DNA of 64,000 nucleotides from an uncultured Lentisphaerales bacterium (lineage in GTDB: Bacteria; Verrucomicrobiota; Lentisphaeria; JABSQK01; UBA12247): contig CALSSJ010000012.1 of NCBI GenBank assembly GCA_943788985.1, forward strand, positions 1 to 64,000, written 5' to 3'. The notes under the pieces are model-generated. The model was given only the letters and a program-made list of their open reading frames with translations. It was not told the origin of the DNA and did no database searches. Below are positions 20,032 to 45,757 of this stretch, piece after piece (position 1 is the stretch's first letter; the number at the start of each line of letters is the position of its first letter). A program made the translations under genes and the position numbers.

Positions 20032-20228
20032 AACCACTGATGGACACTGATGAACACTGATATTCATTGGATAATTCGTTTTCATTCGAGATTAGGGTGT
20101 CTGAAATTCAGGATGTATCCCAACCGGCATCCGGTCACGTTCATACTTGGCGCAACCTCAATACACTGGAACTCCATCTTATAGACTCGCTCGGATTCAT
20201 CAGTGTCTATCAGTGTGCATCAGTGGTT
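20032..20228 (-). mobile_element. Miniature inverted-repeat element carrying an internally deleted GxxExxY gene (copy 1)
   Basis: Arms AACCACTGATGGACACTGATGAACACTGAT / ATCAGTGTCTATCAGTGTGCATCAGTGGTT. The interior translates on the minus strand to ..VTGCRLGYILNFRHPNLE*KRII. Confidence 0.7.
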
Positions 20229-20248
20229 AAGTCTTCTTTCTCCTCCGT

Positions 20249-20303
20249 TGCCAACATCGAGCTAAGGCGCGGATTCACTCACCGCCTTGAGCTTCTGTTT
20301 GGT
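20249..20303 (-). repeat. attC-like site (55 bp) just downstream of a stop codon
   Basis: Minus strand ACCAAAC-AGA-AGCT(C)AAGGCGG-TGAGTGAAT-CCGCGCCTTAGCT-CGAT-GTTGGCA. Confidence 0.65.
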
Positions 20304-20311
20304 CTTACGTC

Positions 20312-22555
20312 CTACTGGGTTTCCATTATGATGACGTCTTTCTTGCGGGACTCGGGAGTAACGGTCATGTCAATAAGCGTTCCATTCCGCACAGTGCCTT
20401 CGATTACGGTGCGCTGCGGTGCATGCAGCTTGAAATCAAGATTCCAGTTCTTTGGCCAGGCCGGCAATAAGCGGATCTTGCCGTCGTCTGCCTGAAGGAT
20501 CATGGTCTGCAATCCCATCAGAAGATTTCCGCCATGGCACTGATCGGGCGTCCAGTCAAAGTTCGGGCCCCAGAAGGCTGGGAATCGGCTCTCTTTGTGT
20601 TTGTTCTTCGCTCGTATGGAAATGTCTTGGGCGGCGGCGTCGGCTAGACCGAGAAAGGCCGCCTGCGTATCGTCTTGCCGCCATCCGTTGTTCCCTTTGA
20701 TTCGCCTGTTTTTGTAGGTGTTGCGGGCCATCTCCAGATCACGCTTGCCAACCCCGTAGATCCTGAATGGGAAGATTGAGTAAAGATTGGGATTCTCACT
20801 ATTGCCGGGTCTTGAGATGTCGCTCTGGGCATGCATGATTTCCGCTTGTCCGGATATCTTGGTCGTCGGTATTGCGGGGATCACCTTGCGAAACGTCATC
20901 CATCGAGTTCGACGGTCCATGCCGATCTCTTTATCGGTCAGTGCCAGCAAGCGATCCAACCCCCACATCAAACCTGCCAGGTCGGGCGTGGGATTCGTGC
21001 AATTACGGTACGTCTCGCAGGCATACGAGGGATACATATTCAGCTGGCCATTCTCGTCGCGACTCCAGTGCTCATCCCACCAGAGCAGAAACTCGTCGGC
21101 AATCGGCAAGAGTTCATTCTTCAGGAACTCCTTGTCACCGGTATGATCATAGTAATCAATCATCATCGCGAGCAATTCAAGTGTTCCGGTGTAATGAAAA
21201 CGAATGTATGAGTTGCGGACAGGGGCGCCCGGCTTGCCGGACATTTTTCCTGTACCGCCGTAATCGCCATTCGTGTAGGTGCCCCATGGTGTCATCGTTT
21301 CCGGGAAGAACGCACCCTTATGGCCGAAATAGATCTGTGTACGGATCTTGGCGAGGGGAAGCGCATCGAGGTACATCCTGAACATAGGGCGCATCATTTC
21401 GTAATCCCCGGAAGCCAACATCGGCCAGTAGGGCAACCGCGTGTTCTGGAACCAGTAGCATCCGCCCCATTGACGGTAGTCCGGGTCGTGCTGCGTGTTG
21501 ACGGTAAAGATTGAACCGTTGAACTTAATTGGGAAATTTCCGCGTCCTCCGCAGGCGGATATCCAGCGTTGTAAGAAATACCCCCGAGTAATCGCTTCGG
21601 CATCGGCGTTGCCGGTGGCGTAGACCCAACTCCGATCCCAGAACTCATTCCACCACGTGCGATGGGCCTTGAGCGCCTTATCGGCCCCTGCCGCCTCAGC
21701 CGCTGCGATGTTTGATTCGATCGCATTCAGCCATTTCTCCTCGGTACTGGGCGCCTGGGTATGGGTATGGATAGACAATCGGAAGCTTTTTCGAGGCTTG
21801 CTGCTCTTTAGAGTCTTGTCGCCCGCGTTCATCAGTCCCTTGCCTTGAATCACGCCGCCGAACGTGCGATGTAGCAGCGGGTCCACTCCGGTGTTCATGG
21901 CCGGTTGCAGGTGCTGTAATTCGAGCGTCTCTTTCCACGGTGAAATTCGATTGCGATGATACCATGCTATCCGGTTCTTCTGCCCCTCAATCACCGTGTC
22001 CGGGTAAACCGTTTTGGGGCCTATCGTGACACTGTCGCTTCTGCCCTCGAGTTTGCCGAGCATTCGCTCTTTCTCCCGCCAGAGTTCCAACTCAACTTCA
22101 ACGTCGAAGGCGTTCTTGCTGTCGGCATCGACGTGGATAACCTGCCGGTTGGCATCGACCCAGACACGCGCCGTGATGGTCTTATCTCCGGCACCACGGG
22201 TTATCTCAATCTCGCCTTGGCGTAGCTTGAGCTCCTGCTTGAACTCCGCCCCGGCGAGGCCGGGCGCGAACTTGATCCGCACACGACCGAGCTTGCAAAG
22301 ACGAAGATGTTCATCCCAACTGTCGGTTCGACTCATGAGGAATACCAGGTCACCATTGGGTTCCACCCACAGGTTAAGTCCGGTTTCTCCGTTGCCGATC
22401 GGCATAGAGCCGTTGTAATCCTCGCTGGGCGTCGTCCAGGTAACGTTGTGTGTTTCCAGAGGATCTGCGTCGACTGGCTCTGCCCCATATGCGCCGCATG
22501 CGATCAACAGCAGGCAGATTGAGGCGGTCATGATTGGGTGTCTCGTCTTGCTCAT
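20312..22555 (-). CDS. GH95-like / DUF5703-type six-hairpin glycosidase
   Basis: HNVTWTTPS..SMPIGNGETGLNLWVE, PIKFNGSIFT, DYRQWGGCYWFQNTRLPYW, FPAFWGPNFDWTPDQCHGG, LLPAWP. Probable start MSKTRH at 22555 after GGAG. Confidence 0.75.
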   Translation of the reverse strand: MSKTRHPIMTASICLLLIACGAYGAEPVDADPLETHNVTWTTPSEDYNGSMPIGNGETGLNLWVEPNGDLVFLMSRTDSWDEHLRLCKLGRVRIKFAPGLAGAEFKQELKLRQGEIEITRGAGDKTITARVWVDANRQVIHVDADSKNAFDVEVELELWREKERMLGKLEGRSDSVTIGPKTVYPDTVIEGQKNRIAWYHRNRISPWKETLELQHLQPAMNTGVDPLLHRTFGGVIQGKGLMNAGDKTLKSSKPRKSFRLSIHTHTQAPSTEEKWLNAIESNIAAAEAAGADKALKAHRTWWNEFWDRSWVYATGNADAEAITRGYFLQRWISACGGRGNFPIKFNGSIFTVNTQHDPDYRQWGGCYWFQNTRLPYWPMLASGDYEMMRPMFRMYLDALPLAKIRTQIYFGHKGAFFPETMTPWGTYTNGDYGGTGKMSGKPGAPVRNSYIRFHYTGTLELLAMMIDYYDHTGDKEFLKNELLPIADEFLLWWDEHWSRDENGQLNMYPSYACETYRNCTNPTPDLAGLMWGLDRLLALTDKEIGMDRRTRWMTFRKVIPAIPTTKISGQAEIMHAQSDISRPGNSENPNLYSIFPFRIYGVGKRDLEMARNTYKNRRIKGNNGWRQDDTQAAFLGLADAAAQDISIRAKNKHKESRFPAFWGPNFDWTPDQCHGGNLLMGLQTMILQADDGKIRLLPAWPKNWNLDFKLHAPQRTVIEGTVRNGTLIDMTVTPESRKKDVIIMETQ

Positions 22556-22632
22556 TGCCTTGTTCTCCATCAGTCCATTGCTTCGTATTGTCAGCATGTC
22601 GTCAGCTTCTTCCATCTGTCCGCTGGCGGCCT

Positions 22633-23967
22633 TCAACTCCGCCCCATATCGAACCCTTTACGGGCTGGAAGATTGATGAATTCGTTGAGCTGGTCATCAT
22701 TCGTCACGCGCAGGTTTTCTGCGTCCCATTTAATACGCTTCCCTTTGCCCCTACGTTCAGACAGAGCGGCAAGCATCAGTGCTTCTGTGAATGGGCCTGT
22801 TTCGTTAAAGTTTGTGCCAGGCAACGGCCCTCCGTTCGTTATGGCATCGACCCATTCCTTGTGATACCCACCCTTGATACGTGGAATTGTTTTCGGCGGC
22901 ATGTTCTTTCTGAAGTCCAGCCATTCATCATCATTCATCGTGATGATGCGTTTCGCGCTAGACCGGAGATCTGCCTGTAAGGTATGTTTGTCACCAACGA
23001 GCAAAAGGCAGCTGCCTCCTTTAGGTATCGTTAGCTCCTTGTTCTCAGGTTGCTTTCCTCCTGAGTACCAATGCACCTTCATGGGAGCCTTTTTGCCTCG
23101 AGCCGGGTACTCTAAAATGGTGTGGCTCCAGTTGGGGATCCTCTGACCATTTGAGAAGTCCTGAGCAACTTCGGATTGAACCGCCATAGGCGCACCCATG
23201 TCTAGCGCGTAGTTGGCGCCGTCAAGAGTGTGCGGGCCCCAATCCCCGATTAATCCACTTCCATACTCCCACCACGGACGCCATCCAACATAGCATCTAC
23301 GAAACCCAACCTGAGGATTCGAACCGAGCCACAGATCCCAGTCAAACCCGGCAGGAGGTTCTGATTCAGGGCACAAGGTCCAGCCCTTCTGATTGATGCG
23401 ATCGCGCGGTGGCTGGAGCACACCGTGAACCTCACGGACATCACCAAGCACTCCAGCGTCAACCCACTCCTTAAGCCGTCTGATTCCATCAGATGCTCTT
23501 CCGAAGTTACCTGATGCTGTAATGATTTTGAACGTCTGTGCCGCTTCCTTCAGCTTGCGTGCTTCCCACACCGTATGAGCCAGTGGTTTTTCAAGAAAGA
23601 GATGCTTGCCGCGTTCCATCGCCATATAGGCTGGCCAGTAATGTGCGTGATCAGGAGTGCTGACAACCACGGCATCGATATCCTTGTCCAGCTTGTCCAG
23701 CATGACACGGCAATCTTTGAAGCGCGGTACGGATGCCATACTCTCGGGGATTTTCCTGTATGTTTTCGAATTCACATCACACAGGCCAACAACATTAACC
23801 AGGTCGGCCAGGCCTTTCAGATTCGTTTTTCCCTGCGAGCCCAGTCCGATGAAGGCGACATTCAACCTGCTGTTCGCTGACTCTCCTGATTTCCCAATGG
23901 CGAAAGTTGAGAACATACAGCTCCCTGCAACCGCACTACTTGCTTTCAAAAACGTACGTCTATTCAC
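22633..23967 (-). CDS. Tat-exported Gfo/Idh/MocA family oxidoreductase
   Basis: MNRRTFLK Tat motif; VAFIGLGSQG, DAVVVSTPDHAH, LEKPL, DWDLWLG, IGDWGPH. Confidence 0.92.
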   Translation of the reverse strand: MNRRTFLKASSAVAGSCMFSTFAIGKSGESANSRLNVAFIGLGSQGKTNLKGLADLVNVVGLCDVNSKTYRKIPESMASVPRFKDCRVMLDKLDKDIDAVVVSTPDHAHYWPAYMAMERGKHLFLEKPLAHTVWEARKLKEAAQTFKIITASGNFGRASDGIRRLKEWVDAGVLGDVREVHGVLQPPRDRINQKGWTLCPESEPPAGFDWDLWLGSNPQVGFRRCYVGWRPWWEYGSGLIGDWGPHTLDGANYALDMGAPMAVQSEVAQDFSNGQRIPNWSHTILEYPARGKKAPMKVHWYSGGKQPENKELTIPKGGSCLLLVGDKHTLQADLRSSAKRIITMNDDEWLDFRKNMPPKTIPRIKGGYHKEWVDAITNGGPLPGTNFNETGPFTEALMLAALSERRGKGKRIKWDAENLRVTNDDQLNEFINLPARKGFDMGRS

Positions 23968-24002
23968 TCTCTATCCTCCTATTGATTGTCTTCTTCATGA
24001 TT

Positions 24003-31530: not shown

Positions 31531-33119
31531 CAGTGGCGGTCCGGAAAGGGATTTCTTCCTGGAGGGGGCGCTTTCACAGGAGCCACTGCACCCACCTCGG
31601 CAGGAATTTTAGCTTCAGTGCTGAAGATCGAGGCAGGCAAGCCCTCTTTGTTATACAGATTGGCTGATTTGGCATTCGTGGACCATGCATAGCGGACCAC
31701 CGTTGGCTTTGGCACCTCCGGATGGGAGACCGTCACGCTGTCTTTGCTCGTGATTTCAGCCTGCGCCCATTTCCATTGACGGTCAGCCCCGCAAATCTGG
31801 AAATATTTCAACGGCTGCTTCGTTTCCTGCGTTGCTTCCATGCCGGTTTTTGATCCGGTCATCAGCCCGGAGCCTGCATGATCAAACTCGATGATGACTT
31901 GTTTGCCATCGATCTTGTGGCTCTTGTAAAGTGGCCCGCTGCACACGGGAACCTGCTTTTGATAATCATGCTTCAAGGCCCAGAGGGCGAGCCGCTTGCC
32001 GACGTCCACTTTGTTATGTGCGTGCACGTCATGGGCTTCGCCGATGTCACTCGACACCGTCATGCCGGTGTTTTTCACCCGGAGTGTGCGGCGCTGCTGG
32101 TCACAGATGGTGGGCCAGCCGTCATACTCCACAGGCTTCATCGTGGGTGGGTCGTAGCTGGCGCGCGAGCGTCCCTGGTAGTTGGTCAGCTGGACGAAGT
32201 AGAAGGGGAACTCGCCCTGTGCCCATAGCTTGCGCCAGGCAGTGATCATGGCACTGAAGTGTTGTTCGTACTTGAGGGTATTGTGATCGCGATTGGATTC
32301 ACCCTGATACCAGATGGTGCCGCGGATGGCATAGGGGATCACCGGGTTAACCATGCCATTGAAGATGGTAGCTGCCTGCTTTGGGTTCTTGTTGTAGTAG
32401 GCTGCCATTTCTTCATCCGCCTGAAACGCTTCAGCCGGCATCCAAGGTTCGATGCGGGTGCCACCCCAGGCGCACTTGATCAGGCCCACCGGAACATTGA
32501 GCTCTCTGCGTAGCTCGCGAGCAAAGAAATAGGCGGTGCCTGAAAAACCAGGATTGTTCTGCGGTGATGAATCCAACCAAGTCCCCTTGAGGGTTGCTCA
32601 GCGGCTTCATGGGTGATTTGGTCTTGGCCACGGTAAACTGCCTCAGCAGCGCATCACTCGCGGTTTCCATTTCCTTTTTGACATAATTTGCCGTGGGGAT
32701 GTGTTCCGGTGTGGTGCGCTTCGGAGACACCTTGGCCAGCTGTTCCATCTCTCCACTCCATGTTCGACTGCCCGGAGCAGAACCAGACTTCTCCGGAGAG
32801 CACGTCCTTGATGGTCAATCGTATTGTTGCCCTTCAGGGTCAGGGTATGAGGGCCACCTGCCTCTGGGGTCTTCAGCTTGACCATCCATTTTCCGGAGGC
32901 ATCGGCGGTGGTCGCCGCGCTTTCTCCCCAGCTGCCGGTGACGCTTACTTTTTCCCCTGCATCAGCCGAGCCCCAGACGGGCGCTTGGGTCTCACGCTGG
33001 ATCACCATGTGATCGGTGAAGAGTGCAGCAGGCACGACATCCGCCAAGCTGACACTTGGGATCGCAGTGACAAAGGCAGCTGCAATCGCTGAAATGATTT
33101 TGATTGAATGATACTTCAT
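31530..33119 (-). CDS. Sialate O-acetylesterase (SASA)-like domain with signal peptide (5' part of the probable fusion); frameshifted
   Basis: LFTDHMVIQRE, AWGGTRIEPW, IWYQGESN, PFYFVQL, DVHAHNK, VRYAW..NLYNKEGLPA. Confidence 0.85.
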
Positions 33120-34108
33120 CTTTTACCTAAGTTGATGTTTCGGCTATTTTCCGCCGCCTGCATCCGGCTTCTTTGAGTCTGCTTGGCTAGCGTAAAGGTG
33201 GCCACCACGGCGCGGTGGTCAGAGGGATAGGGAGCAACCACGATGTCCGCGATCTCTTCATTCTCCCCAACGATCTTTGCGTCGGTCACTTTTACGCCAT
33301 TGCCCCTGAAATACACAAAATCAATGCGGTCAGGGTGGCTTCTCGGGTCATCGTCCTTGTAGGCTGGTGACCAGGTGAAGCCCGGCTTTTCCATCTCGTC
33401 GGGATAGATCGTGCGATAGGCATCGGTAAAGCCGGCTTTGGCGAACACCTTAGAGGTGGGGAATTCCACCTTGATGGGGTGGCGACCGGACTGGGCCGCT
33501 TTTTCGGTCCAGTCAAGGTGTGACGGTTCATTGAAATCACCTACTATAAAAACAGGAGCCTTTTTATCGGAGAGGGACCTTACCAGCCTGAGAAGTCTTG
33601 CGATGTCTCTACCTCGAGCTTTTTGGGCTCCTTCAATCGCTTCGGCTTCGGTCTTGATGAAGGGGGTATTCCTGTGTTTCTTAAACTTTGGCCGAATGCC
33701 CATCAGCTGGTAGGGCTGATAAGGATTAGATGGTAGGTGCAGGTTGAAGATGTAGGCTTGCTGATCCGAAAGCAGTTTGACTTTGATGCCATCTCTCTTC
33801 TCTTCGACAATCTCGTAACGCGTGAGGATGGGACCGTAGTGATTCCAGCCCAGTAGCTGCGCCAACTTCACGGCACTATCGCCGGCCTCCTGCATGCCGA
33901 CCACATCGGCCTTTGCCTCCTGAATCACCTTGGCCGTTTGGGATAAGGGTTGCCCACGCTTCGTGCCGCCGCGATAGACATTGTAAGACATGACCTTGAC
34001 GCTGAGCTCTTCGCTGGACTCTTCAGTTTGTGCGTGCAGGGGAGAACCAAAAGACGCCCCAGCAGCAATCAGTATTACTATCGTAACCGTGCGAATTATG
34101 TTCTTCAT
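33116..34108 (-). CDS. Secreted EEP-family protein
   Basis: Signal peptide; VMSYNV, DVVGMQE, VGDFNEPSHLDW, DRIDFVY, PSDHRAV. Confidence 0.9.
   Translation of the reverse strand: MKNIIRTVTIVILIAAGASFGSPLHAQTEESSEELSVKVMSYNVYRGGTKRGQPLSQTAKVIQEAKADVVGMQEAGDSAVKLAQLLGWNHYGPILTRYEIVEEKRDGIKVKLLSDQQAYIFNLHLPSNPYQPYQLMGIRPKFKKHRNTPFIKTEAEAIEGAQKARGRDIARLLRLVRSLSDKKAPVFIVGDFNEPSHLDWTEKAAQSGRHPIKVEFPTSKVFAKAGFTDAYRTIYPDEMEKPGFTWSPAYKDDDPRSHPDRIDFVYFRGNGVKVTDAKIVGENEEIADIVVAPYPSDHRAVVATFTLAKQTQRSRMQAAENSRNINLGKR
33141..33170 (-). repeat. attC-like left arm and loop at the EEP gene end
   Basis: Minus strand AAGCC-GGATGCAGGCG-GCGGA-AAATAG-CCG (reads KPDAGGGK* in an alternative frame). Confidence 0.55.
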
Positions 34109-34111
34109 AAT

Positions 34112-34144
34112 ATTTAACCTCTACCCGCACCGAATTGCTCGGTG
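34112..34144 (-). repeat. Eroded copy of the compact attC-like site
   Basis: Minus strand CACCGAGCAATTCGGTGCGG-GTAGAG-GTTAAAT; homologous to 19976-20024 and 45508-45556. Confidence 0.5.
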
Positions 34145-34155
34145 ATGGTTTTTTC

Positions 34156-34291
34156 AACCACTGATGAACACTGATTTTCATTCGGTAATTCGTTTCCATT
34201 CGAGTTTTGGCTTTTTGAAATTCAGAATAGACCCCAGGCGATCTCCTGTGATTTCTCAGCCTCACAAATCGGTTCAGGTTTATCAGTGGTT
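34156..34291 (-). mobile_element. Miniature inverted-repeat element with a deleted GxxExxY gene (copy 2)
   Basis: Arms AACCACTGAT.. / ..ATCAGTGGTT. The interior translates to ITGDRLGSILNFKKPKLEWKRITE*. Confidence 0.7.
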
Positions 34292-34311: not shown

Positions 34312-34351
34312 TGCCAACGTCGCGGATCAGGCGCGACTATTTCCCGTCGCC
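34312..34351 (-). repeat. attC-like loop and right half
   Basis: Minus strand GGCG-ACGGG-AAATAG-TCG-CGCCTGATCC-GCGAC-GTTGGCA, just after the GH29 stop codon. Confidence 0.65.
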
Positions 34352-34357
34352 CAAATA

Positions 34358-36016
34358 CTATATCGCTCCTTCTTCCCGCGTCCCGGTCTCTGTTTTGCTG
34401 GGAATGTAGTCCTTCGGATTCGTCCGCTTGTCGTAGGGATTCCAATACAACCCAATCCCCGAAATCAGCGGTGTCGTCCGCCCGTCTTCAATCACCAGGC
34501 GGAACTTCTGCGCGGTGACAGCGGGGAACCGGATCTGACGACGGTACCCAATCGTCTTGCTGGCATGCAGCGCAGACCACTTACCGCTGTCATCGAGGTA
34601 CTCCATGCGATGCGCCCCCACACGCTGCCCCATCTGGACCGGCTCACGCAGCTCGAATACGTTCACACTCTTCTTTTTTCCCAGGTCCAAGGTCAGGGTA
34701 GCCGTCACTTCCTGGTCCTGGCCTGCCCAATAGGTCGCCTGCCGGCCATCCAAAGCCTTCTCGGCGCTGAAGCGCGGATCGGCGTCGCCCCAGCTCTTGT
34801 CCGCCGTGATCGTGGCGCCTTCAGCCAGGTTTACGGCAAAGATTGTGTCGATCTCATCGGTCAACTGTTTCAGCGCCGCGACCTGATCCTCTGGGAAACG
34901 GCCGGTTTTATCCGGCGACAGGTTCAGCATCATCGTGCAGCCGCGGCCAATCGAAGCAAAGTGGAGGTCGCGCAGCTGCTGCGGCGATTTAGGTTGGCTA
35001 CGAGGCCCTCGTCTCCAGAACCACCCGCGGAGAATGGATGTATTTGCCTCCCGCGGCATGTAGCGCAGGAGCTCAACGGCCTTGTAGCTCGGTTGACCGC
35101 CGGCCACAACCCCGGCAGCCGCCCCCTTATCATAGGTGTGGCCAATATAGGCAACCGGCAGTTTCCCTCGCCGCACACGCGATGGCGTCTTGTACGGCGA
35201 AGACTCAAAGCACCAATTCTCCTCCCGGCCCACGCCGGCTTCATTGCCCACCCCGCCAACGTCCGGCCCCATCATCTCGATAAAGGCAGCTGGCGCATAG
35301 CGACGAATCACCTTGTAGTATCCCGGCCAGTCAAACGGCGACATGTTACGGCTGTCCTTCGATCCCCCGAACGCACCGTCAAACCAGAACCCGGCAACCG
35401 GACCATACTCCGTCATCAGCTCAACCAGTTGATCGGTGAAGTAATCGTTATACGCCTCCGTCCCATAGCGCTTGTCGTGACGATCCCACGGCGAGAGATA
35501 GTAGTTGATCCCGATTCCCTGCTTATTGCAGGCATCAGAGAACTCGCGCAAGATGTCTCCCTTGCCATCAGCCCATTTTGTCGATTTCACCGAATGATCC
35601 GTATGCGGGCTCGGCCAGAGACAGAAACCATCATGGTGCTTCGCCGTCAGCGAAATCACCTTGAACCCATTCTCCTTGGCAACCCGAACCCACTGCTGGC
35701 AGAAATTTTGGGACGTCGGAGCAAACACGTTCGGATCCTCGTTGCCATCTCCCCATTCCTGTCCGGTAAAGTTGTTGACCGTGAAGTGAATGAACATCTG
35801 CTTCTCGAGATGGTGGTATTTGAGCTGCACATCCGTTGGGAGGGGCGAAACGGCAGGAGGTCCATTTTCCAACTGCCGGATAATGTCCCACACCTCTCCA
35901 CGCTCCGCTGCGGCACTCATGGCCGCACTTGCCGTCAAGACAACTGCGGTCACGCCAACACCCAACCATCGTAACCCTCTACGCATCACATGCGCCTGGT
36001 TTGTTCCTTGCATCAT
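34358..36016 (-). CDS. GH29 alpha-L-fucosidase with a C-terminal F5/8 type C (CBM32-like) domain
   Basis: MFIHFTVNNFTGQEWGDG, LTAKHHDGFCLWPS, YLSPWDRH, FWFDGA, SIGRG..LNLSPD; ALDGRQATYW, TIGYRR. Confidence 0.92.
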   Translation of the reverse strand: MMQGTNQAHVMRRGLRWLGVGVTAVVLTASAAMSAAAERGEVWDIIRQLENGPPAVSPLPTDVQLKYHHLEKQMFIHFTVNNFTGQEWGDGNEDPNVFAPTSQNFCQQWVRVAKENGFKVISLTAKHHDGFCLWPSPHTDHSVKSTKWADGKGDILREFSDACNKQGIGINYYLSPWDRHDKRYGTEAYNDYFTDQLVELMTEYGPVAGFWFDGAFGGSKDSRNMSPFDWPGYYKVIRRYAPAAFIEMMGPDVGGVGNEAGVGREENWCFESSPYKTPSRVRRGKLPVAYIGHTYDKGAAAGVVAGGQPSYKAVELLRYMPREANTSILRGWFWRRGPRSQPKSPQQLRDLHFASIGRGCTMMLNLSPDKTGRFPEDQVAALKQLTDEIDTIFAVNLAEGATITADKSWGDADPRFSAEKALDGRQATYWAGQDQEVTATLTLDLGKKKSVNVFELREPVQMGQRVGAHRMEYLDDSGKWSALHASKTIGYRRQIRFPAVTAQKFRLVIEDGRTTPLISGIGLYWNPYDKRTNPKDYIPSKTETGTREEGAI

Positions 36017-36384: not shown

Positions 36385-38489
36385 CCCGAGTTTCGCACTA
36401 TAGCCTACACTCAAGCGTAAAAATCGGAGAAATCGACGCGAGTCACTACACAAAACGACTGCGTTCAGTCCGGCTGTCGGTAGCACGAATGCTGAGTCGG
36501 AAGCAATGACAAATCGATCCCGAGATGGTTGTAAATCTGACGGTGGATAGGCTCGGGCCGACCGGGTTTGCGTACGCGATGCACCTCGCCACTGATAGTC
36601 GGTAGCTCGGTGGTCGCGTAGCAATGCGACCCGAGAATCTCGCGCAGCGTCGCCCAGTTGCGCCGATCTCCACACTGCTCAAGCCTGTAGCAGACAAAGC
36701 GCATCAGCTGGTAGGCCAGCAGCGATATGAAAATATGGCCGTCGACGCGGTGCTCGAGGCGGTGAAAGTTCGGCCGGAGACCGAGCTGACCTTTCAGACA
36801 GCGAAAACCGGCCTCGGCCTTTGTCAGCACCATGTAGCTGCGCCAGAGCTCAACAGCCGATAGCGTCGGTGCATGGGCCTGGAGCACGTAGCAACCATCG
36901 AGAGTCGCGGCCTGGGCCATGTTGGCGTCGTCATGCTCCCAGGTAAGCGCCCCGTCTTTGCACGAAATCTGATAGTAGCGAGCCACTCGGCTGTGACGCT
37001 CTCGTAAGCGGCCGATAGCCTGGTCGATCTTCTTGGGCGCCTTCAATCGGCCCTTGCTAATCCGCACGCGCAATTTTTCTAGATCCGCCAGCAGGCGCTC
37101 ATCGGCCTTGCTGCGAATGGCGGATTCTTTGAGACCGCGCTGGGTGCTGCGGCAGAGCAAAAACTGGTCATCATACTCGGCTTCTTTTACCGCATCGATT
37201 CCGACCAGCTGAGGTCGGGCCAGCTTGCTCACTTCGACTTTGCGATCCGGAATCTGCTCAAAAGTGGCCGCGGCGAAGGTCTCGCTGAAATGATTGCGGA
37301 AGCTACGCGTGCGGTTCACCAGGTAGTTAATTTTGGCCTCGCGTAGCGTCTTGAGATTCTCTTCAGTCGCCAAGCCGCCGTCAAGAACGACGATCGGCGG
37401 CGCGGATAAGTGCTGGCCTGTCAGCGTCTTTTGCAAGGTCTCGATCATCTCCGGCAGGGTCGTGGCGTCGCCAGTATTGCCGGCAAAAGTGCGATGAAAA
37501 AGGATGAAGCCGTGCTCGTCGAAACACACGCCCGCCGCTACCAAGGGGCAGTCGTTGCGCTTCTGTTTGCTCTTGCCTCGCTGGGCCTTCGGGTTCTGCT
37601 CACAGATTCCTTCGAAATGCGTGTTCGTGAGATCATACAAGTAGTAGGTCCGCTGCAGCGACAGCTTACTGGCGATGATCTCTTGCATATGCAGCTCGAT
37701 CTCATCGCGTGCCTCGATCAAGCGATCGCTAACCCGATAATAGCGATCTTTGTTGATCTGCGTGTCGTGCTTAAGCCCCAAGAGATCTGCCAACGACGAG
37801 CCTGCCAGGAAGCGTTCGGTGAGGGCCAACTCGCTTCCTGGGGCGACCATCCGGCCGATGACTTGGACAATGGCCGCCTGACGTTGTGCGGGGTTAAAGT
37901 TGAGGCGTTCGAGGAGGGAATCCATGTTCAGTTCACGCCAGGCATGCAGGGCCAGCAACTCTGGTCCGAGGCGGGTAGTCTGCCCGGTAGAGACTTGCTC
38001 GACGAGTACGCCGTCGATGCTTGGCGAAGGCGCTTCATCACTCTGCGGCGTCGGCTCCTGCTTGCGTTCTCCGATAGGCACCCAGGTTCCCTTGCGTCGG
38101 ACGGCTCCGACGATTTCGTTGGCCTCTTCGACGACATCGGTTGGCATGCGAAGCAGCAGAGGGCGGCAATAGAGTTCCGCGTCGATGACTTGGGCGATGA
38201 GCTTTCCACGCGCCTTGTCGAGTTCACGCATGCCCAAGGATAAGACCACGCGGTTGCGTGGTTGGCCGTCTGCATTGCGATAGGACTCAAGCAGTTGCAG
38301 GATCTGCTTGCCTCGAGATGTGCGTGTGGCGAAGTACATGAGAATACGATGGCACGCTCATGTAGCGCCGTCAAGGGAAATTCCAATATTGCAGTAACTA
38401 CGAGACCGCTTCTCGCGCCCGTGAGCGAGAAGCGATGGCAAAATATGCCCAAAATTCGTCAAAATCCGGATTTCAGTGCGAAACTCGGG
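36385..38489 (-). mobile_element. IS1634-family insertion sequence (2105 bp)
   Basis: Perfect 15-bp terminal inverted repeat CCCGAGTTTCGCACT (36385-36399 / 38475-38489), flanked by direct repeat CTAA (36381-36384, 38490-38493); a single transposase ORF. Confidence 0.9.
36465..38339 (-). CDS. IS1634-family DDE transposase
   Basis: LQLLESYRNADGQPRNRVVLSLG, LYDLTNTHFEG, RGKSKQKRNDCP, VVLDGG, EAGFRCLKGQLGLRPNFH, RVDGHIFISLLAY. Confidence 0.9.
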   Translation of the reverse strand: MYFATRTSRGKQILQLLESYRNADGQPRNRVVLSLGMRELDKARGKLIAQVIDAELYCRPLLLRMPTDVVEEANEIVGAVRRKGTWVPIGERKQEPTPQSDEAPSPSIDGVLVEQVSTGQTTRLGPELLALHAWRELNMDSLLERLNFNPAQRQAAIVQVIGRMVAPGSELALTERFLAGSSLADLLGLKHDTQINKDRYYRVSDRLIEARDEIELHMQEIIASKLSLQRTYYLYDLTNTHFEGICEQNPKAQRGKSKQKRNDCPLVAAGVCFDEHGFILFHRTFAGNTGDATTLPEMIETLQKTLTGQHLSAPPIVVLDGGLATEENLKTLREAKINYLVNRTRSFRNHFSETFAAATFEQIPDRKVEVSKLARPQLVGIDAVKEAEYDDQFLLCRSTQRGLKESAIRSKADERLLADLEKLRVRISKGRLKAPKKIDQAIGRLRERHSRVARYYQISCKDGALTWEHDDANMAQAATLDGCYVLQAHAPTLSAVELWRSYMVLTKAEAGFRCLKGQLGLRPNFHRLEHRVDGHIFISLLAYQLMRFVCYRLEQCGDRRNWATLREILGSHCYATTELPTISGEVHRVRKPGRPEPIHRQIYNHLGIDLSLLPTQHSCYRQPD

Positions 38490-38607
38490 CTAAGCATAGC
38501 GTATTCAGTGATCTCATTTTCTTATCTCTTTTTATTTTCGGTTCTTCGTTGATTCTAGTGGTAGTTCAGGACGTTTTGACCGGATAACTGGATAAGTCGG
38601 ATAGTTT

Positions 38608-39015
38608 TTAATCCTGTTGATCAAGCGTTTTTAAATCCCGCACCTTCCGCTTCACTTCGACTTTGGTCTCCGCGAAATTAAGAATGAGCCCAATTACTTT
38701 CTGAGTTGCCGTCAGGTAGTTCACCAGTTGAATCTCGTGGGCCCGAACAATGCTCCTAACCGATTTCAATTCAAGAATAATGACATCCTCTACAAGAACA
38801 TCTGCAACAAACGTCCCAACCACCTCTCCCTCGTATGCAACCTGGAGCGGCACCTGTGACTCCGCAACCAACCCAGCCTTCTTCAATTCGATCATCAGGC
38901 ACTTTTCATAAACTGACTCTAGAAACCCGAAGCCCATTTTGTTATAAACCTGATAAGCACATCCGATAATTGCCTTCGTCAGCTCTTGATGCTCCAGTCT
39001 CTCCCCTTTAGACAA
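38608..39015 (-). CDS. GxxExxY protein (PD-(D/E)xK nuclease-like)
   Basis: ELTKAIIGCAYQVYNKMG-FGFLESVYE (GxxExxY), ADVLVEDVIILELK, HEIQLVNYLTAT..GLILNF. Imperfect inverted repeats at 38576-38602 and 39043-39070. Confidence 0.92.
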   Translation of the reverse strand: MSKGERLEHQELTKAIIGCAYQVYNKMGFGFLESVYEKCLMIELKKAGLVAESQVPLQVAYEGEVVGTFVADVLVEDVIILELKSVRSIVRAHEIQLVNYLTATQKVIGLILNFAETKVEVKRKVRDLKTLDQQD

Positions 39016-39122
39016 TGATGTTTTTTGATTTACTGCATTTCCATCCTGCAGATCCTGTTATCTCGTCCAATATTCCTCCCCCCCACCTTCCATCTCGACA
39101 ACTTCTACGAAGAACGGTTTTC

Positions 39123-41026: not shown

Positions 41027-41029
41027 CGA

Positions 41030-41480: not shown

Positions 41481-43351
41481 CTAGCGGCGGGTATCGGGGT
41501 CGCCTGCATCTTGATTGTTAAGTTTCCTGTTTTCATTATGGACCTGTTGGATCCAGGCGATGGCCGCAGGGGCTATCAGTTCATGGCCACCGTCAAAAAT
41601 GGTAACCGTTGCATGGCCCGACTCCCTTCGGAAGAGAGGTTGCTTCTGGCCATAGTTTGGGTCTGACAGGTTGGCTTGCAGCTTCGGCGGGACCTTTCTC
41701 TTCTCAACAAAGAAACGAATATCCTCTTCCGAGATCCGGTCTTCCGCTGCCGCTACTTCGTTGAACGCAAGAAGTGAATGGCTAATGGGAACGATTCGCT
41801 CCTTAATTCCTGCGTTGAGATGCAGGGTCGTTCCTCTCGCGTTTTTCAGATAGGTGATGGGTGATCGCTTTGCATACTCCGCGTCAACCGCAGGGCTATC
41901 ACCCGGTGCGCCACCGCATGATTTTTCCATGGACTCGACATGTTTTCCTTGGCCATGCCAGGCCGCCAAGTCCGATATGGGGACCCAGGCCGAAACCCCT
42001 GCCCATAGCTCCGGATGGTGCCCAGCCATGACCAGCGCCGTGTAGCCCCCGCCGGACGTACCGACAAGAAAGACGGAGGAATCATCGATGTTGCTTGTCT
42101 TCTTCGCGTACTCCACCGCGCTTACAATATCTGCCACAACCAGTTTTGACCCGGTTGCTTCAGGTCGATTGTTGGGGCCACGGAAGTCTGGATGGATGTA
42201 CACCCACCCCTGCTCCATGCACCATTGCTCAATGGCTTTGTGGTATTTCTGCTTGTAGTTCCCGGACCAGGTATGGAGAGCAACAATAAGAGGCACGGGT
42301 GTTTCTGACGCGGGAGCATAAAACATGGCAGGCTGCTCGGATTGGTCTGCAGCGCTTTTATACTTAATTTCCTTCACCTTTGGGGCAGGTATTTTTTCTG
42401 AGCTCGGTTGACCGAAAGCGTAAACGTCGCTACCACGGCACGGTGGTCAGAGGGGTATGGAGCGACCACGATATCCGCGTTCTCTTTGTTCTCTCCGATA
42501 ACCTTCGCATCGGTCACCTTGAGACCCTCGCCTTTAAAGTAAACATAATCAATGCGGTCATAGTGGATCGTAGGATCATCGGCTTTATTGAGAGTCGTCC
42601 AGGTGTAGCCGGGCTTTGCCATCTCGTCGGGATAGACCGTGCGATACGCATCGATATAGCCTGCCTGGGCCATCATCAAGGAGGTGGGGAATTCCACCTT
42701 CATGGGGTGGCGGCCGGAGTTGGCCGCGGCTTCGGTCCAGTCCAGATATGAGGGTTCGTTGAAATCGCCGACGACAAAAATAGGCGCCTCTTGATCGGAG
42801 AGAGCATTTATCCGTTTGAAAAGTCGTGCGATGAATCTGGCGCGCGTCTTATTTGCACCGGCAATTGCCTCGGCTTCGGTATCTATTTTGGGGTACACTC
42901 TGTAGCCGGCGGTCAGACCCAAGAGCTGGAAGGGCTGGTACGGACCGTGGGGCAGGTGCAGGTTGAAGACATAGGCTTCCTGGCCTGAAGGCAGCTTGAC
43001 CTTCATGCCGTCGGAATTCCTTTTGGCACTATCAGGTAACTCCTCGACAATTTCATAACGCGTGATGAAGGGACCGCTATGATTCCACCCCAGCAGCTTC
43101 GCCAGTTTCGGGACATTATTGCCGATCTCCTGCAGACCCACGATATCGGCCTGTGCCAGCTCGATCATCTTGGCCGATTGGGACAAGGGTTGCCCACGCT
43201 TCGTGCCGCCATGTAAAGCATTGTAGGTCATGACCCTCACGATGGACTCTTCGCCGGGCTTTTCGCTTTCTGCGTGCAGGGGTATTGCAAAAGCCAGCCC
43301 AAGACCGAACAGCATTGTTATAGCACTCATCGTGCGAATTGTTTTCTTCAT
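41481..43351 (-). CDS. EEP domain + alpha/beta-hydrolase (peptidase S9-like/esterase); probably one fused gene with a 1-nt frameshift near 42412
   Basis: EEP 42374-43351 (signal peptide, GDFNEP, PSDHRAV). Hydrolase 41481-42377 (ALHTWSG, PDFRGPN, GTSGGG, FDGGHE) has no signal peptide. Upstream of its GTG the hydrolase frame reads QPSSEKIPAPKVK, matching the QPSSEK tail of the EEP at 24019. Confidence 0.8.
41499..41523 (-). repeat. attC-like left half inside the 3' end of the hydrolase gene
   Basis: Minus strand ACTTAAC-AATCA-AGATGCAGGCGAC: canonical RYYYAAC, a 5-nt spacer and the shared L'' arm (translated LNNQDAGD). Confidence 0.55.
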
Positions 43352-45496
43352 TAAAGTTCCTTTTTATGGCCGAGCTGCGAGAGCTTCCAGGTCTTATCGG
43401 TGTGTACCTTTCCATCCCCAAAAATGATGCGGACACGGGCCGTGGGATCGTCACGAGTCGTGTCGAAATCAATCGTCGCAAAGCCCTTCTGCCCGCTGTT
43501 CGCTATTCCGGAGGACATCACCTCGACCATGGGATAGCCGACACGGTCGGACTCGTGGTGCTTCCCAGACGAGGGATTGGTGCATATCGCCTGACAGATA
43601 CATCACGCCGGAGATCTGATTTTCTTTGATGGCATCGAAGAGACGGTGGCGTGAAAAGGTGTAGATGCGCCATCCATCCACCTTGCTGTGATGAAGCGTA
43701 CTGCCGGAAGCAATGATCTTAAATCGGGCTTTTGAATTCTTGAGACCGTTTAAAAGCCACTCAAACTGGGCATCCCCAAGCATCCGCTTCTTCTCATCAT
43801 CCGGCACTTCGTTGGGCGAACGATGGTAGCGACCATCCACTACAAAAAAATCAACATCTCCATAGGAGAATTTGAAGAAGGCACCCGGGGTATCGACAGT
43901 TCCAAGTTCCGGGTTGGCCCAGAACTGCTTCCAACCCGCCAGCGAAAACTCTTTTCCTTTTGCCGTACCATCGGAATTGTTGGGACCGTAATCATGATCA
44001 TCCCAGATCGCGTAGACCGGCACATGGCGCAGCACATTGGCAAACTCCTTCTCCTGGCGGTAGGCCACATGATGTTTTAACTGCACAGTAGGGTCGGTAG
44101 TATCGGAATATTGGGTATCGCCCACCGTGATGTGAAGATCGGGTTTCTCCGCGAGCAGGAGATTCCAGGAATCCTGGGGCCCTCCACTCCGCATGCAGGA
44201 GGTAATGGCCAGCCTGAAAGCCGAGGGCTTTCCCTCGACCGGAGCCGTCTTGAAGGATCCCTCCCGGGCGGGATCAGGTTTACCATCTACAGAAACCTGA
44301 TAGCGATAACGCGTATCTGGCAGCAATCCCGTCAAGGGTGATTTGAACACCTGCCCGGACCCCTTGGCGGCGGGGTTAGGCTCCGCGGTAAACGTTCCCG
44401 TCTTTTTATCAACCAGAGAGGATTCCTCGGCATGATAGTTAAAGGTGCACCGGGACTTGGCCGGGGCATACATCCACAAGGTCATCCCATCCGGTTTGAC
44501 ATCCCCCATCAGAGGACCGGCGATCCCTTTGTCTGCTTGTTTGGCCAGCGAAAAGGTCGCCACCACCGCGCGGTGGTCAGAGGGATAAGGCGAAACAACG
44601 ATGTCCGCGTTCTCTTTGTTTTCACCCACGATCTTTGCGTCGGTCAGTTCTACGCCCTTGCCTTTGAAGTAAACAAAATCGATGCGATCATAGTGGGTCG
44701 TTGGGTCATCAGGCTTGTACATGGGCGACCAGGTGTAGCCCGGGTTTTTCATCTCGTCGGGATAGATCGTGCGGTAAGTATCGACAAAACCTGCTTTGGT
44801 CATCGCCTTCGAGGTGGGATACGCCACTTTGATCGGGTGGCGACCGGACTGGGCCGCTGCTTCGGTCCAGTCAAGGTGTGAGGGTTCATTGAAATCGCCC
44901 ACCACAAAAACAGGAGTCTTTTGGTCGTAAAGGAAACGTATCTTTCTAAGAAGTCTTACTACGTGTGGTTGGTAGCGTGCCTTTCTTGCCCACTCAATCG
45001 CTTCGGCTTCGGTAGTGATCTTTTCGCCGCCGCGAGTAATACCCAATAGCTGGTAGGGCTGATACGGACCGGATGGCAGGTGCACGTTGAAGATGTAAGC
45101 TTCCTGGCCAGAAGGCAGCTTGACCTTGATGCCGCCTTTGTTGCGGCTGTTGTCACCTTTGATGCGCTCGATGATCTCATAACGCGTCACGATCTCGCTA
45201 TCCACGTCGTGATTCCACCCCAGCAGCTGCGCCAGTTCCTCCGTATTCTTAGGGTACTTTCTTACCTGGATCTCCTGCAGACCGACAATATCAGCCCGGC
45301 CCTCCTGAATCACCCGGGCCGTCTGGAAGAGGGGTTGCCCACGCCTCCTGGCGCCGTGATATACATTGTACGACATGACCCGAACGATGGACTCTTCGCG
45401 GGGCTCCTCGGTTTGTGCCTGCAGGGGCGTCACAAAAGCCAACCCAACGGCGAGCAGCATTCCCATAGCACTCATGGTGCGAATTGTTTTTTTCAT
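43351..45496 (-). CDS. EEP domain + PhoD-like alkaline phosphatase fusion; frameshift near 43560
   Basis: Start MKKTIRTMS at 45496; EEP motifs; then LAITSC, VGDTQYSD, AIWDDHDYGPNN, VDGRYHRS, MLGDAQFEWL, LSGDMH. The shifted frame continues ..EVMSSGIAN..HKKEL* to 43351. Confidence 0.88.
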
Positions 45497-45507
45497 AACA
45501 GTTCCTA

Positions 45508-45556
45508 TGCAAACTTCTACCCGCACCGACTTGTTCGGCTGCGGGAATTGTTGGCG
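45508..45556 (-). repeat. Compact attC-like site (49 bp), homologous to 19976-20024
   Basis: Minus strand CGCCAAC-AATTC-CCGCAGCC-GAACAAGTC-GGTGCGG-GTAGAA-GTTTGCA. Confidence 0.6.
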
Positions 45557-45566
45557 TTTTTTTTTA

Positions 45567-45757
45567 AACCACTGATGGACACTGATATTCATCTCACGAC
45601 GCGCTTCCATTCGAGTTTTGTTTTCTTCTTTAAATTCAGGAAATATCCCAGACCGTATCCGGTCACGTTCATCCTTGGAGCAACCCACAATATACTAAGC
45701 CTCCATCTTATGGATCGGTTCGGGTTTATCAGTGTCCATCAGTGTCCATCAGTGGTT
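45567..45757 (-). mobile_element. Miniature inverted-repeat element with a deleted GxxExxY gene (copy 3)
   Basis: Arms AACCACTGATGGACACTGAT / ATCAGTGTCCATCAGTGGTT. The interior encodes MDTDKPEPIHKMEA*YIVGCS.. joined out of frame to VTGYGLGYFLNLKKKTKLEWKRVVR*. Confidence 0.75.

Follow-up and report, generated by a model that had tools for sequence, protein, structure and literature searches.

Three hairpin-bounded GxxExxY gene remnants beside attC-like sites in same-strand CAZyme operons

Integron attC sites follow the consensus RYYYAAC/GTTRRRY, are about 57–141 nt long and recombine at G|TT, a crossover that leaves a cassette's first bases more complementary to its own site's 5′ box than the current 3′ box of that site is. 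At least two attC sites within 4 kb and no integrase make a CALIN (Cury et al. 2016, PMC4889954), and integrons have been reported in Verrucomicrobia (PMC4889954; Ghaly et al. 2021, PMC8352920), as the accessible parts of these papers state. The 64-kb window studied here, meaning the whole stretch of DNA analysed, holds three small elements (c1, c2 and c3) that resemble the cassettes of those accounts in being promoterless units, each a single small ORF with an imperfect palindrome after it. Likewise, the window sites have the outer AAC/GTT boxes, unpaired spacers, inner stem and variable loop of attC, the unit begins with bases complementary to its own site's 5′ box (7/7 in c1; 7/9 pairs in the L036 array described below), and, were the sites accepted as attC, c1 and c2 would each have two of them within 4 kb and no integrase, as in a CALIN. 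Unlike integrons as there described, the window has very short sites of a compact type (39–49 nt), placed singly or in pairs inside CAZyme operons rather than arrayed, with no integrase in 64 kb. The cargo, moreover, is wrapped in a second, much longer foldback of tandem 10-nt units, for which these accounts, in the parts covered, gave no matching cassette description.

Drosophila FB elements have inverted ends made of short tandem repeats. Foldback and MITE elements share with ours inverted ends of tandem short units in variable number (2 to 8), many copies per genome and internally deleted derivatives that outnumber intact copies; ours differ in having no target-site duplication (0/65), no transposase, bacterial hosts and a nuclease-fold gene as sole recognisable cargo. 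A further parallel is the intervening sequence (IVS) with an ORF in the 23S rRNA of Leptospira. In Coxiella, the 23S rRNA IVS contains an S23p ORF (PMC4990558). As far as that account goes, IVSs also enclose a small, decaying ORF of unknown function in stem-forming inverted repeats and are scattered across phyla, suggesting horizontal transfer, and one hairpin with our arms sits in a 23S gene (L120); unlike them, our elements encode a PD-(D/E)XK protein rather than an S23p four-helix bundle, lie between protein genes, and are known from sequence alone, whereas excision by RNase III has been shown for IVSs. REP, BIME and REPIN sequences with their RAYT genes (PMC3116915, PMC3733652) are likewise intergenic palindromes in many copies, for which a gene present once may be needed; by the accessible parts of these sources they differ in being one 20–40-nt palindrome rather than arms of 10-nt unit arrays and in having a Y1 transposase, and here the candidate partner gene lies inside the hairpin.

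The features of the window are as follows.

20249..20303, minus strand: attC-like site a, starting 8 nt past the stop codon of gene 20312-22636
20032..20228, minus strand: copy 1 (c1), hairpin-bounded GxxExxY remnant, 3+3 ten-nt units, nhmmer E 6.8e-10
about 20144-20198, minus strand: N-terminal remnant of c1
20063-20143, minus strand: C-terminal remnant of c1
19976..20024, minus strand: compact 49-nt attC-like site b, its end 31 nt ahead of the gene 18335-19945 start codon
34312..34362, minus strand: attC-like site c, upstream of c2, with terminal GTTGGCA (34318-34312) and no clear AAC 5′ box
34156..34291, minus strand: copy 2 (c2), shortest remnant, 1–2 units per arm, nhmmer E 1.3e-8
34179-34251, minus strand: C-terminal remnant of c2
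34112..34150, minus strand: compact attC-like site d, 5′ box lost by deletion, with gene 33116-34108 starting after it
45567..45757, minus strand: copy 3 (c3), 20-nt perfect stem, nhmmer E 1.5e-7
45588-45671, minus strand: C-terminal remnant of c3
45508..45556, minus strand: compact attC-like site e, CGCCAAC ... GTTTGCA
33180..34237, minus strand: duplicated segment, c2 with downstream phosphatase (Exo_endo_phos) gene, copy at 44538-45651 (c3 with downstream gene)
38608..39015, minus strand: full-length GxxExxY gene of another subfamily, PF13366 E 4.9e-40, TIGR04256 E 1.8e-40

The three elements, with their genes on the minus strand, are bounded by inverted arms of 10-nt ACACTGAT units, in agreement with an earlier note on this DNA that had described common arms of about 10-bp units. 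The sequence CACTGATNNACACTGAT (up to 2 mismatches) occurs nine times in the window against 0.10 expected; eight occurrences are exact and fall within the c1, c2 and c3 loci, the ninth being a two-mismatch match at 57486. The unit pair CACNGATNNNCACNGAT is found eight times, always in these loci (0.02 expected). The arms of c1 (20032-20061 / 20199-20228; 30 nt) are 90% complementary, those of c2 (34156-34169 / 34278-34291; 14 nt) 93% and those of c3 (45567-45586 / 45738-45757; 20 nt) 100%, and all are better preserved than the interiors. Minus-strand RNA folds are more stable than those of 100 dinucleotide shuffles (z = -5.4 for c1, -3.0 for c2 and -5.6 for c3). Rfam 15 gives no match at gathering score in the whole window and none at E up to 1 in 19900-45900. 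A reading of the flanking hairpins as terminators or promoters was rejected for the coding strand, where there are none. A single terminator-like site lies at c2 on the opposite strand.

The interiors encode C-terminal peptides of the GxxExxY type on the minus strand (TGCRLGYILNFRHPNLE*KR in c1, TGDRLGSILNFKKPKLEWKR in c2, TGYGLGYFLNLKKKTKLEWKR in c3), and c3 has an N-terminal peptide as well (MDTDKPEPIHKMEA*YIVGC) that resembles the N-terminus of L062, a 461-nt element of another genome with a near-whole gene; the earlier note had read these motifs correctly. An nhmmer DNA profile of five arm-bounded GxxExxY genes or remnants from other genomes, excluding arms and window sequence, recovers all three copies with significant E-values (listed above), while the N-terminal part of c3 alone (45653-45721) gives E 0.26. 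A blastn search with the L062 interior finds c2 (E 5e-7) and c3 (E 0.003), and a custom protein HMM finds c2, c3 and c1 at E 4.6e-5, 0.056 and 0.23. In Pfam and NCBIfam scans, the remnants match nothing but the C-terminal part of PF13366/TIGR04256, and that below threshold: c1 matches TIGR04256 at E 0.0032 over profile positions 91-116 of 116 and stays under the family cut-offs (17.8 bits, cut-off 35; 12.5 bits, cut-off 22), c2 reaches 14.4 bits, also below cut-off, and the c3 pieces give no match. By this homology, the interiors of c1, c2 and c3 evidently descend from GxxExxY genes and, as judged from their sequence, are pseudogene fragments, not functional members of the family.

The catalytic middle was said to be missing, and what remains is indeed some 20 codons from the start of the gene and some 30 from its end (only profile positions ~1-20 and 91-116), with the D...ExK middle lost and no D...(E/D)xK core. 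In c1, TGA replaces the Trp codon of LEWKR, and the N-terminal remnant of c3 carries a TAG and a frameshift. The deletion junction attributed to both c1 and c3 is found in both: the window contains just two exact copies of the 16-mer ATGAACGTGACCGGAT, 20129-20144 in c1 and 45657-45672 in c3, each of them minus-strand, and both breakpoints are common to the two copies. Copy c2 looks like the same deleted form with about 25 nt more lost, to judge from the aligned remnants. In arm-bounded genes of other genomes (L125, L040, L097, L075 and L058) the breakpoints differ from those of the window.

Each element is followed by the same compact attC-like site of 39–49 nt, and c1 and c2 are preceded by another, as had been noted: the hairpin motif CCGARCAANTYGGTGCGRGTAG, 3′ of each element in gene orientation, has three matches in the window (0 expected), and a 31-nt flank precedes both c1 and c2 (two matches). 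The upstream flanks of these two copies are 83% identical over 54 nt (blastn; score 41, reached by 0/300 shuffles), and the score of the site a flank against that of L075 is reached by 1/300. Site a consists of an ACCAAAC 5′ box, an imperfect hairpin and a terminal GTTGGCA (20255-20249), and the purine-rich cassette leader of c1 spans 20229-20255. Site b comprises TGCCAAC, an unpaired spacer, a 10-bp stem with one bulged base and a 5-nt loop, a second spacer and GTTCGGC. With DNA parameters, sites a, b and e fold on both strands as attC, with outer AAC/GTT, unpaired spacers and a bulged stem. The boxes TGCCAAC, GTTGGCA and GTTCGGC match the attC consensus only in part, and the compact sites fall below the usual attC length range. 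In c1, the site b 5′ box complements the unit's own GTTGGCA at 7/7 positions and its own 3′ box at 4/7; the rule does not hold in c3, whose upstream end is lost, and in c2 the box is deleted. The stop codon of the gene upstream of c3 (45765-45767) lies 7 nt before the arm, leaving no upstream site, and a diverged leader seen there by eye was dismissed, the flank being unlike that of c1 (77/300 shuffles reach the score). None of the 71 window ORFs scanned is an integrase or tyrosine recombinase, so the window does not contain a complete integron. Should the sites be taken as attC, c1 (a+b) and c2 (c+d) would each amount to a two-site cluster, with one site at c3.

Sites of the same kind occur in a cassette array. 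Site b matches L036 3059-3089 (93.5% over 31 nt, E 4e-7) and site e matches L036 at 90.6% over 32 nt (E 2e-5), both falling on L036 3059-3090, and further copies of the compact site lie at L035 14-57 and 1696-1715; in this array it recurs away from any arm. In the verrucomicrobial L035/L036 sequences, 13 sites are spread over about 5.9 kb among small ORFs that mostly share one strand. In the L036 array, the 3′ box complements the 5′ box of the next site 7/7 in 7/9 consecutive pairs, against 3-6 of 7 within the same site and a mean of 4.83 in non-adjacent pairs (10% at 7/7); by this pairing pattern, L035/L036 reads as an array with the integron cassette signature. Two arm-hairpin elements occupy cassette positions in it, between GTTGGCA and GCCAAC. 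Their interiors, judged by eye to be GxxExxY remnants, have no derivation detectable by the nhmmer profile, and the resemblance of their leader to that of c1 is not significant beyond GTTGGCA (43/300 shuffles reach the score). A further point for the cassette reading comes from L075, where two arm elements flank an RHH/ParE pair. Aligning all 11 array sites with MAFFT did not yield a consensus structure that could be used. We therefore trained an attC covariance model of our own on the six long-type L036 sites; it locates site b exactly at 19976-20024 with 9.2 bits and E 8.5, among noise, scores short-type sites in L035/L036 at 10.4-13.9 bits and finds nothing in 81 other arm-bearing loci. The attC-like identity given to the window sites earlier finds real support in the homology to the array sites and in the 7/7 boundary of c1; the missing integrase, the non-significant model score and the large neighbouring CAZyme operons weaken it.

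The elements lie in gaps of 366 (c1), 249 (c2) and 268 nt (c3) between same-strand genes, amid large CAZyme, sulfatase and phosphatase genes whose gaps are mostly tiny. Copy c1 is flanked by unrelated genes (GH95-like and GH29), and its homology to c2 and c3 ends at the two flanking sites. In contrast, c2 and c3 belong to a segmental duplication of 1132 blastn columns (71.8%, E 8e-178) that runs through the downstream phosphatase gene; the two phosphatase proteins are identical at 209/329 positions (64%). The earlier note had proposed spread as an empty cassette, with larger segmental duplications including flanking genes as the contrary case. That contrary case is what c2 and c3 present and, since they were copied with the phosphatase gene, independent cassette spread is possible for c1 only.

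We think it rather probable that c1, c2 and c3 are decayed descendants of one GxxExxY gene cassette, deleted once and then copied. The ancestral cargo would have been a small PD-(D/E)XK nuclease gene (GxxExxY) inside the foldback arms. The unit, best kept in c1, would run from an upstream attC-like hairpin ending G|TTGGCA through the purine-rich leader and a left arm holding the ATG to about 20 N-terminal codons fused to about 30 C-terminal codons, the right arm, an A-rich spacer and a compact attC-like site of 49 nt, in which the 5′ box TGCCAAC exactly complements the first 7 bases of the unit. The catalytic core would have been lost in a single event before the dead unit was copied, with c2 and c3 arising from duplication of a segment that included the downstream phosphatase gene. 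Copy c1, which shares only the cassette and two sites, was most likely moved there by site-specific recombination of the integron-integrase type or by homologous recombination at those sites, integrase-mediated movement being an inference. Today the elements are non-coding spacers inside same-strand CAZyme operons and most likely inert relics, a present-day role, for example as an RNase III-sensitive stem between cistrons, being improbable but conceivable.

Against a cassette origin stand the neighbouring large CAZyme operons, in which no giant cassettes are delimited (7-mers derived from the cassette rule had one intergenic match, at 3182, in coding-like sequence with no hairpin), the incomplete sites c and d and the lost upstream site of c3, the L035/L036 hairpin cassettes that are not detectably GxxExxY-derived, and the lack of any need for cassette mobility in c2 and c3. 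Possibly nothing here was ever mobile, an intergenic module of relic gene and regulatory or REP-like hairpins having been multiplied only by local segmental duplication and recombination among CAZyme and phosphatase paralogues, with a superficial resemblance to attC. The c2/c3 duplication, in which the flanking gene has diverged as much as the element, the five Exo_endo_phos paralogues in the window, the 71 ORFs without an integrase and the non-significant covariance score would all suit such a history; we nevertheless find it improbable, as c1 lies between unrelated genes with homology that stops at two sites, its boundary complementarity is 7/7, and the compact site recurs without arms in an array that has the cassette boundary signature.

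More than 125 loci in many phyla have arms of identical sequence, with several to a genome (nine in one Opitutales genome, six in another). Most are bare hairpins and some enclose whole or differently deleted GxxExxY genes, forming a size continuum from L062 down to 53-nt bare hairpins. This abundance, together with independent internal deletions in different genomes, conservation of the unit sequence rather than of pairing, as expected of protein-binding iterons, and the nuclease fold of the GxxExxY model, would fit a foldback or MITE-like non-autonomous element with iterated binding sites in its terminal repeats, whose deleted copies are mobilised in trans by an intact GxxExxY nuclease or another enzyme, the attC-like flanks being a preferred target or a coincidence. 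TTGGC lies within 45 nt outside only 15/143 arms, so most arms are outside this cassette context, a point against the cassette reading. A foldback element is an unlikely source of the window copies, however: none of 65 paired hairpins has a 4-6-nt direct repeat abutting its arms (null 0.1), the copies are only 72-83% alike and hence old, they share sequence beyond the arms, gene duplication accounts for c2 and c3, and the family is listed as of function unknown in PMC3424549. A putative role at the RNA level, compatible with a cassette origin, would let the long intercistronic stem act in the manner of a ribosomal intervening sequence, as a site for RNase III processing or for decoupling. All three elements lie between same-strand genes on a coding strand that shows no terminator or promoter, the predicted stems of 14-30 bp are stable (z = -3.0 to -5.6), arms outlast interiors, and in L120 a same-arm hairpin of 61 nt replaces 8 model positions of the 23S rRNA gene. 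This role seems doubtful to us given that pairing at the variable dinucleotides shows no covariation (56/138 and 36/138 complementary; 0.38 and 0.31 for shuffled partners), that many hairpins have a mismatch at the middle base of the heptamer, that the c2 stem has only 14 bp and that Rfam gives no match even at E up to 1. This absence of covariation in the arms lends no support to a function as a purely structural RNA.

The intact GxxExxY gene of the window passes the family cut-offs at 137-138 bits. Its product carries a catalytic core of D72, E82 and K84, and in a 20-sequence alignment D72 and K84 are invariant and position 82 is E or D. In its nuclease fold, the GxxExxY model resembles Cas4, lambda exonuclease and Hjc; PADLOC finds the intact protein weakly Cas4-like (E 0.002-0.003) and two relatives without match, and a PDB sequence search gave no match. 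The intact copy has 7152 relatives at E <= 1e-10, many of them 70-90% identical across phyla. Literature searches on GxxExxY, PF13366, PDDEXK_3 and TIGR04256 found no described function for this very large family. No account of these elements came up there, nor in searches on the arm decamers and on hairpin repeats in Verrucomicrobia.

The three relics seem to point to a widespread hairpin-bounded gene family with no description in the literature searched. More tentatively, and with the odds against it, arms of ACACTGAT units plus a GxxExxY nuclease may form an undescribed class of selfish bacterial element. Its product would recognise the iterated 8-mers or the cruciform that these build. Elements of this kind would pass between phyla, travel in integron cassettes, settle in rRNA genes in the manner of an intervening sequence and be worn down by internal deletions to the thousands of bare hairpins and spurious MNTD/MDTD-type ORFs seen in Verrucomicrobiota, Planctomycetota and other phyla, the window copies being late decay stages caught in a cassette. 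If GxxExxY genes are the cargo of hairpin-bounded selfish modules, also as cassettes, their patchy multi-copy distribution would be explained, a nuclease acting on ACACTGAT iterons or cruciforms would be the biochemical hypothesis, and masking such modules, which commonly give rise to spurious short ORFs, would be warranted in genome annotation. The unusually small attC-type site (39–49 nt), like the cassette relics stranded in polysaccharide-utilisation operons, bears on the origin of integrase-less attC sites.

The intact gene of the window has no CACTGAT arms and adjoins an IS (DDE transposase, 36465-38339). Inner arms of a GGAT type were not confirmed for it, and its outer 12-nt inverted repeat (GTTCTTCGTAGA / TCAACGAAGAAC, 39104-39115 and 38541-38552) is marginal (9/500 shuffles reach its score).

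The three arm-bounded GxxExxY remnants lie where the earlier note placed them, and sequence searches of the window bear out their arms, peptides and junction.

20032–20228, minus strand: copy 1, with attC-like sites at 20249–20303 and 19976–20024
34156–34291, minus strand: copy 2, with attC-like sites at 34312–34362 and 34112–34150
45567–45757, minus strand: copy 3, with an attC-like site at 45508–45556

Each sits in a gap of 249–366 nt flanked by two same-strand genes and is bounded by inverted arms built of 10-nt units (ACACTGAT), which match over 30 nt at 90% in copy 1, 14 nt at 93% in copy 2 and 20 nt at 100% in copy 3. The window has eight double units of the CACNGATNNNCACNGAT type, all at these loci, against 0.02 expected. 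Fold stability relative to shuffled sequences gives z values of −5.4, −3.0 and −5.6 for copies 1, 2 and 3, respectively, and the peptides quoted previously are present on the minus strand.

Curated profiles give only sub-threshold matches to the remnants (E = 0.0032 for copy 1, 0.036 for copy 2), always to the last 20–25 positions of PF13366/TIGR04256. An nhmmer profile was built from the interiors of arm-bounded relatives in other genomes, leaving out all arms and any window sequence (loci L062, L116, L125, L040 and L097), and its matches to all three copies (20063–20143, E = 6.8e-10; 34179–34251, E = 1.3e-8; 45588–45671, E = 1.5e-7) establish that the interiors derive from GxxExxY genes. The part matched in each case is the gene 3′ end; the N-terminal part of copy 3, which reads MDTDKPEPIHKMEA*YIVGC against MDTDGKEPLHKAESQQIVGS in L062, scores weakly (E = 0.26). 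As proposed, the catalytic middle is missing from all three, and with it the region in which the family has its invariant D72 and K84 and, at position 82, E or D. The junction 16-mer ATGAACGTGACCGGAT occurs exactly twice in the window, in copies 1 and 3, where both breakpoints are identical in alignment, and around this junction roughly a further 25 nt are gone from copy 2. As such, the simplest reading of these alignments is a single deleted ancestor behind the three copies.

Scanning genome contigs with AACCACTGATNNACACTGAT places the remnants in a wider family of more than 125 arm loci, a lower bound, with 2.5-kb flanks for 80. Among the matches listed, the hosts are Verrucomicrobiota, Lentisphaerota, Planctomycetota, Acidobacteriota and other phyla, with at least nine loci in one Opitutales genome, at least six in another and at least five in a Hydrogenedentes genome. 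A near-whole but frameshifted GxxExxY gene of 461 nt lies inside the same arms at L062, an arm-bounded gene is cut by the contig end at L116, a GxxExxY gene is followed by a complete hairpin at L028, and remnants with different internal deletions occur at L125, L040, L097, L075, L058 and L089. Among the matches listed, a partner arm lies within 1.7 kb for 66 of 140 arm occurrences, and GxxExxY-derived sequence adjoins an arm at 10 of 123 distinct loci; paired hairpins are mostly 53–230 nt long, without recognisable cargo. An ATG inside an arm starts 28 ORFs with 45 or more codons; three of these could be assigned, all to the GxxExxY type (L062, L058 and L125), the other 25 lying outside the Pfam scan. 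No target-site duplications of 4–6 nt abut the arms (0/65).

The variable dinucleotides of the arms show no covariation (complementary in 56/138 and 36/138, against 0.38 and 0.31 with shuffled partners), and the heptamer middle base is often unequal between the two arms. It therefore seems to be the sequence of the units that is kept, and not their pairing; the missing covariation also speaks mildly against the RNA-processing or spacer role suggested in the earlier note. No Rfam family matched the whole window at gathering score, or 19900–45900 at E up to 1. In a Patescibacteria genome, a 53-nt same-arm hairpin lies inside a 23S rRNA gene (L120 294–354), where 61 nt stand in place of eight Rfam LSU model positions, between about 224 and 233, so that the insert resembles an intervening sequence.

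Complete hairpins of the same family also form head-to-tail arrays (L013 2400–2751 and L094 1–1004), with a period of 116 nt in a Pirellula genome and, in the Desulfonema magnum chromosome, of about 192 nt, the units there including CACGGAT/CGCAGAT variants. At L036 2273–2531 (= L035 3117–3375), on a verrucomicrobial contig, one arm has eight tandem ACACTGAT units and the other three of CACGGAT/CACAGAT type, so the two arms drift independently in the number and kind of their units. Four copies of a 120–131-nt same-arm hairpin in one Opitutales genome (L023, L026, L029 and L014) have in common an unassigned interior and about 17–19 nt of flank per side, in differing genomic contexts, indicating that a non-GxxExxY variant proliferated within one genome.

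The compact hairpin downstream of each window element is just 39–49 nt long. When folded, the sites show an outer AAC/GTT box and a stem that has a single bulged base, with unpaired spacers, in agreement with the attC architecture given in PMC4889954 and PMC8352920. On L035/L036, a verrucomicrobial contig of 7 kb, the compact motif recurs several times away from arms (93.5% over 31 nt, E = 4e-7). This contig is a textbook cassette array, with small ORFs mostly on one strand, one of them encoding a SUKH-family protein, ten hand-mapped sites, and further sites from a covariance model trained on six of those, including the following.

L036 168–230: array site found by the model, E = 8e-5
L035 792–853: array site found by the model, E = 0.004

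For the short array sites, model and hand-mapped coordinates agree exactly, at 10–14 bits. The boundary signature of integron cassettes is that the 3′ box of one site complements the 5′ box of the next. On L035/L036 this complementarity is 7/7 in seven of nine consecutive pairs, against just 3–6/7 for boxes of the same site and a mean of 4.83 for non-adjacent pairs. Similarly, the first bases of copy 1, GTTGGCA, complement at 7/7 positions the TGCCAAC of the site downstream of this copy, whereas the present 3′ box of that site, GTTCGGC, matches in just 4/7. Because the motif recurs in the array, the array carries the boundary signature and copy 1 obeys the rule, the window sites, homologous to those of the array, can be assigned to an attC-type site family.

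Two same-arm hairpin elements on L035/L036 lie between GTTGGCA and GCCAAC, at cassette positions; GxxExxY derivation of these was not detectable by the nhmmer profile, which counts against the attC reading. So do other results: the site at 19976–20024 scores 9.2 bits with the covariance model (E = 8.5, not significant in the window), the model has no match in 81 other arm-bearing loci, TTGGC lies near just 15 of 143 arms, and no multi-gene cassettes were delimited in the window. A scan of 71 window ORFs from both strands found no integrase; what the window carries is probably a set of cassette relics left stranded, and not an integron. At L036 1756–1826, about 30 nt after a cassette start (GTTGGCAGAG...), stands a solitary right-arm remnant, with AAAAC|GTTGGCT immediately after it; this looks like the scar of a recombination event in which the bulk of a hairpin cassette was lost together with its site. 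Two arm elements at L075 flank an RHH/ParE pair.

Spread of the deleted form as an empty cassette, as previously proposed, does not account for copies 2 and 3. These align over 1132 columns at 71.8% (34237–33180 against 45651–44538), from inside the C-terminal remnant through the right arm, the compact site and almost all of the downstream phosphatase gene, whose proteins are 64% identical; the pair is a segmental duplication that includes the flanking gene, an outcome the earlier note had named as refuting its inference. In contrast, copy 1 has unrelated neighbours (GH95-like upstream, GH29 downstream) and shares only 265 nt with copy 3 (74.7%), comprising the element and compact site. With copy 2 it shares two blocks at 83%, one of them the upstream flank (score 41, reached by 0/300 shuffles). 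Copy 3 has lost this flank (77/300 shuffles reach its score), and just 7 nt separate its arm from the stop codon of the gene upstream. Only copy 1 could have spread independently as an empty cassette. The earlier observation is thus confirmed and its interpretation partly supported, in that GxxExxY origin, single shared deletion and attC-type flanks hold. The three copies are probably inert relics, of interest for the hairpin-bounded GxxExxY module that they reveal.

The window also carries an intact relative.

38608–39015, minus strand: intact GxxExxY gene of another subfamily, without CACTGAT arms

Its protein has 7152 relatives at E ≤ 1e-10, with no solved relative found by sequence. The confident structural model (pLDDT 89) has a PD-(D/E)XK fold, closest among solved folds to Cas4 SSO0001 (E = 1.9e-4), lambda-type exonucleases and the archaeal Holliday-junction resolvase Hjc. 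The family is given as of unknown function in PMC3424549, and the literature and terms searched yielded no papers on GxxExxY function or on these hairpins. The gene adjoins a 624-aa DDE transposase ORF (36465–38339) and is bracketed by a 12-nt inverted repeat (39104–39115/38541–38552) that starts with GTT and ends with AAC, marginally above chance (9/500 shuffles). Annotated proteins of this subfamily (P0084, P0093, P0114 and others) have N- and C-terminal tails such as MDGIGL..., ...LDQQD and ...KNPVHPVIPSKK, as if translation had been annotated on into neighbouring short-unit repeats; annotated GxxExxY ORFs may therefore be inflated by arm sequences.

All 45 large ORFs of the window are on the minus strand. 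Their products are sulfatases, GH29/GH95-like fucosidases, GH20, GH78, carbohydrate esterases, DUF1559 proteins and five Exo_endo_phos phosphatase paralogues. Together they form a cluster for polysaccharide utilisation, such as Verrucomicrobiota and Planctomycetota carry. The five paralogues lie within 18 kb, showing that local gene duplication was repeated in the cluster, and one is fused to a PhoD domain.

33116–34108, minus strand: Exo_endo_phos paralogue
42374–43351, minus strand: Exo_endo_phos paralogue
43469–45496, minus strand: Exo_endo_phos paralogue
45765–46811, minus strand: Exo_endo_phos paralogue
50562–51167, minus strand: Exo_endo_phos paralogue

Broken- or fused-looking CAZyme and sulfatase genes at 4874–10458 and 52382–56736 may be pseudogenes or assembly frameshifts.

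6847–9636, 9633–10067 and 9991–10458: sulfatase pieces
start of ORF 4874–6274: Exo_endo_phos fragment
52382–54679 and 54235–56736: overlapping ORFs
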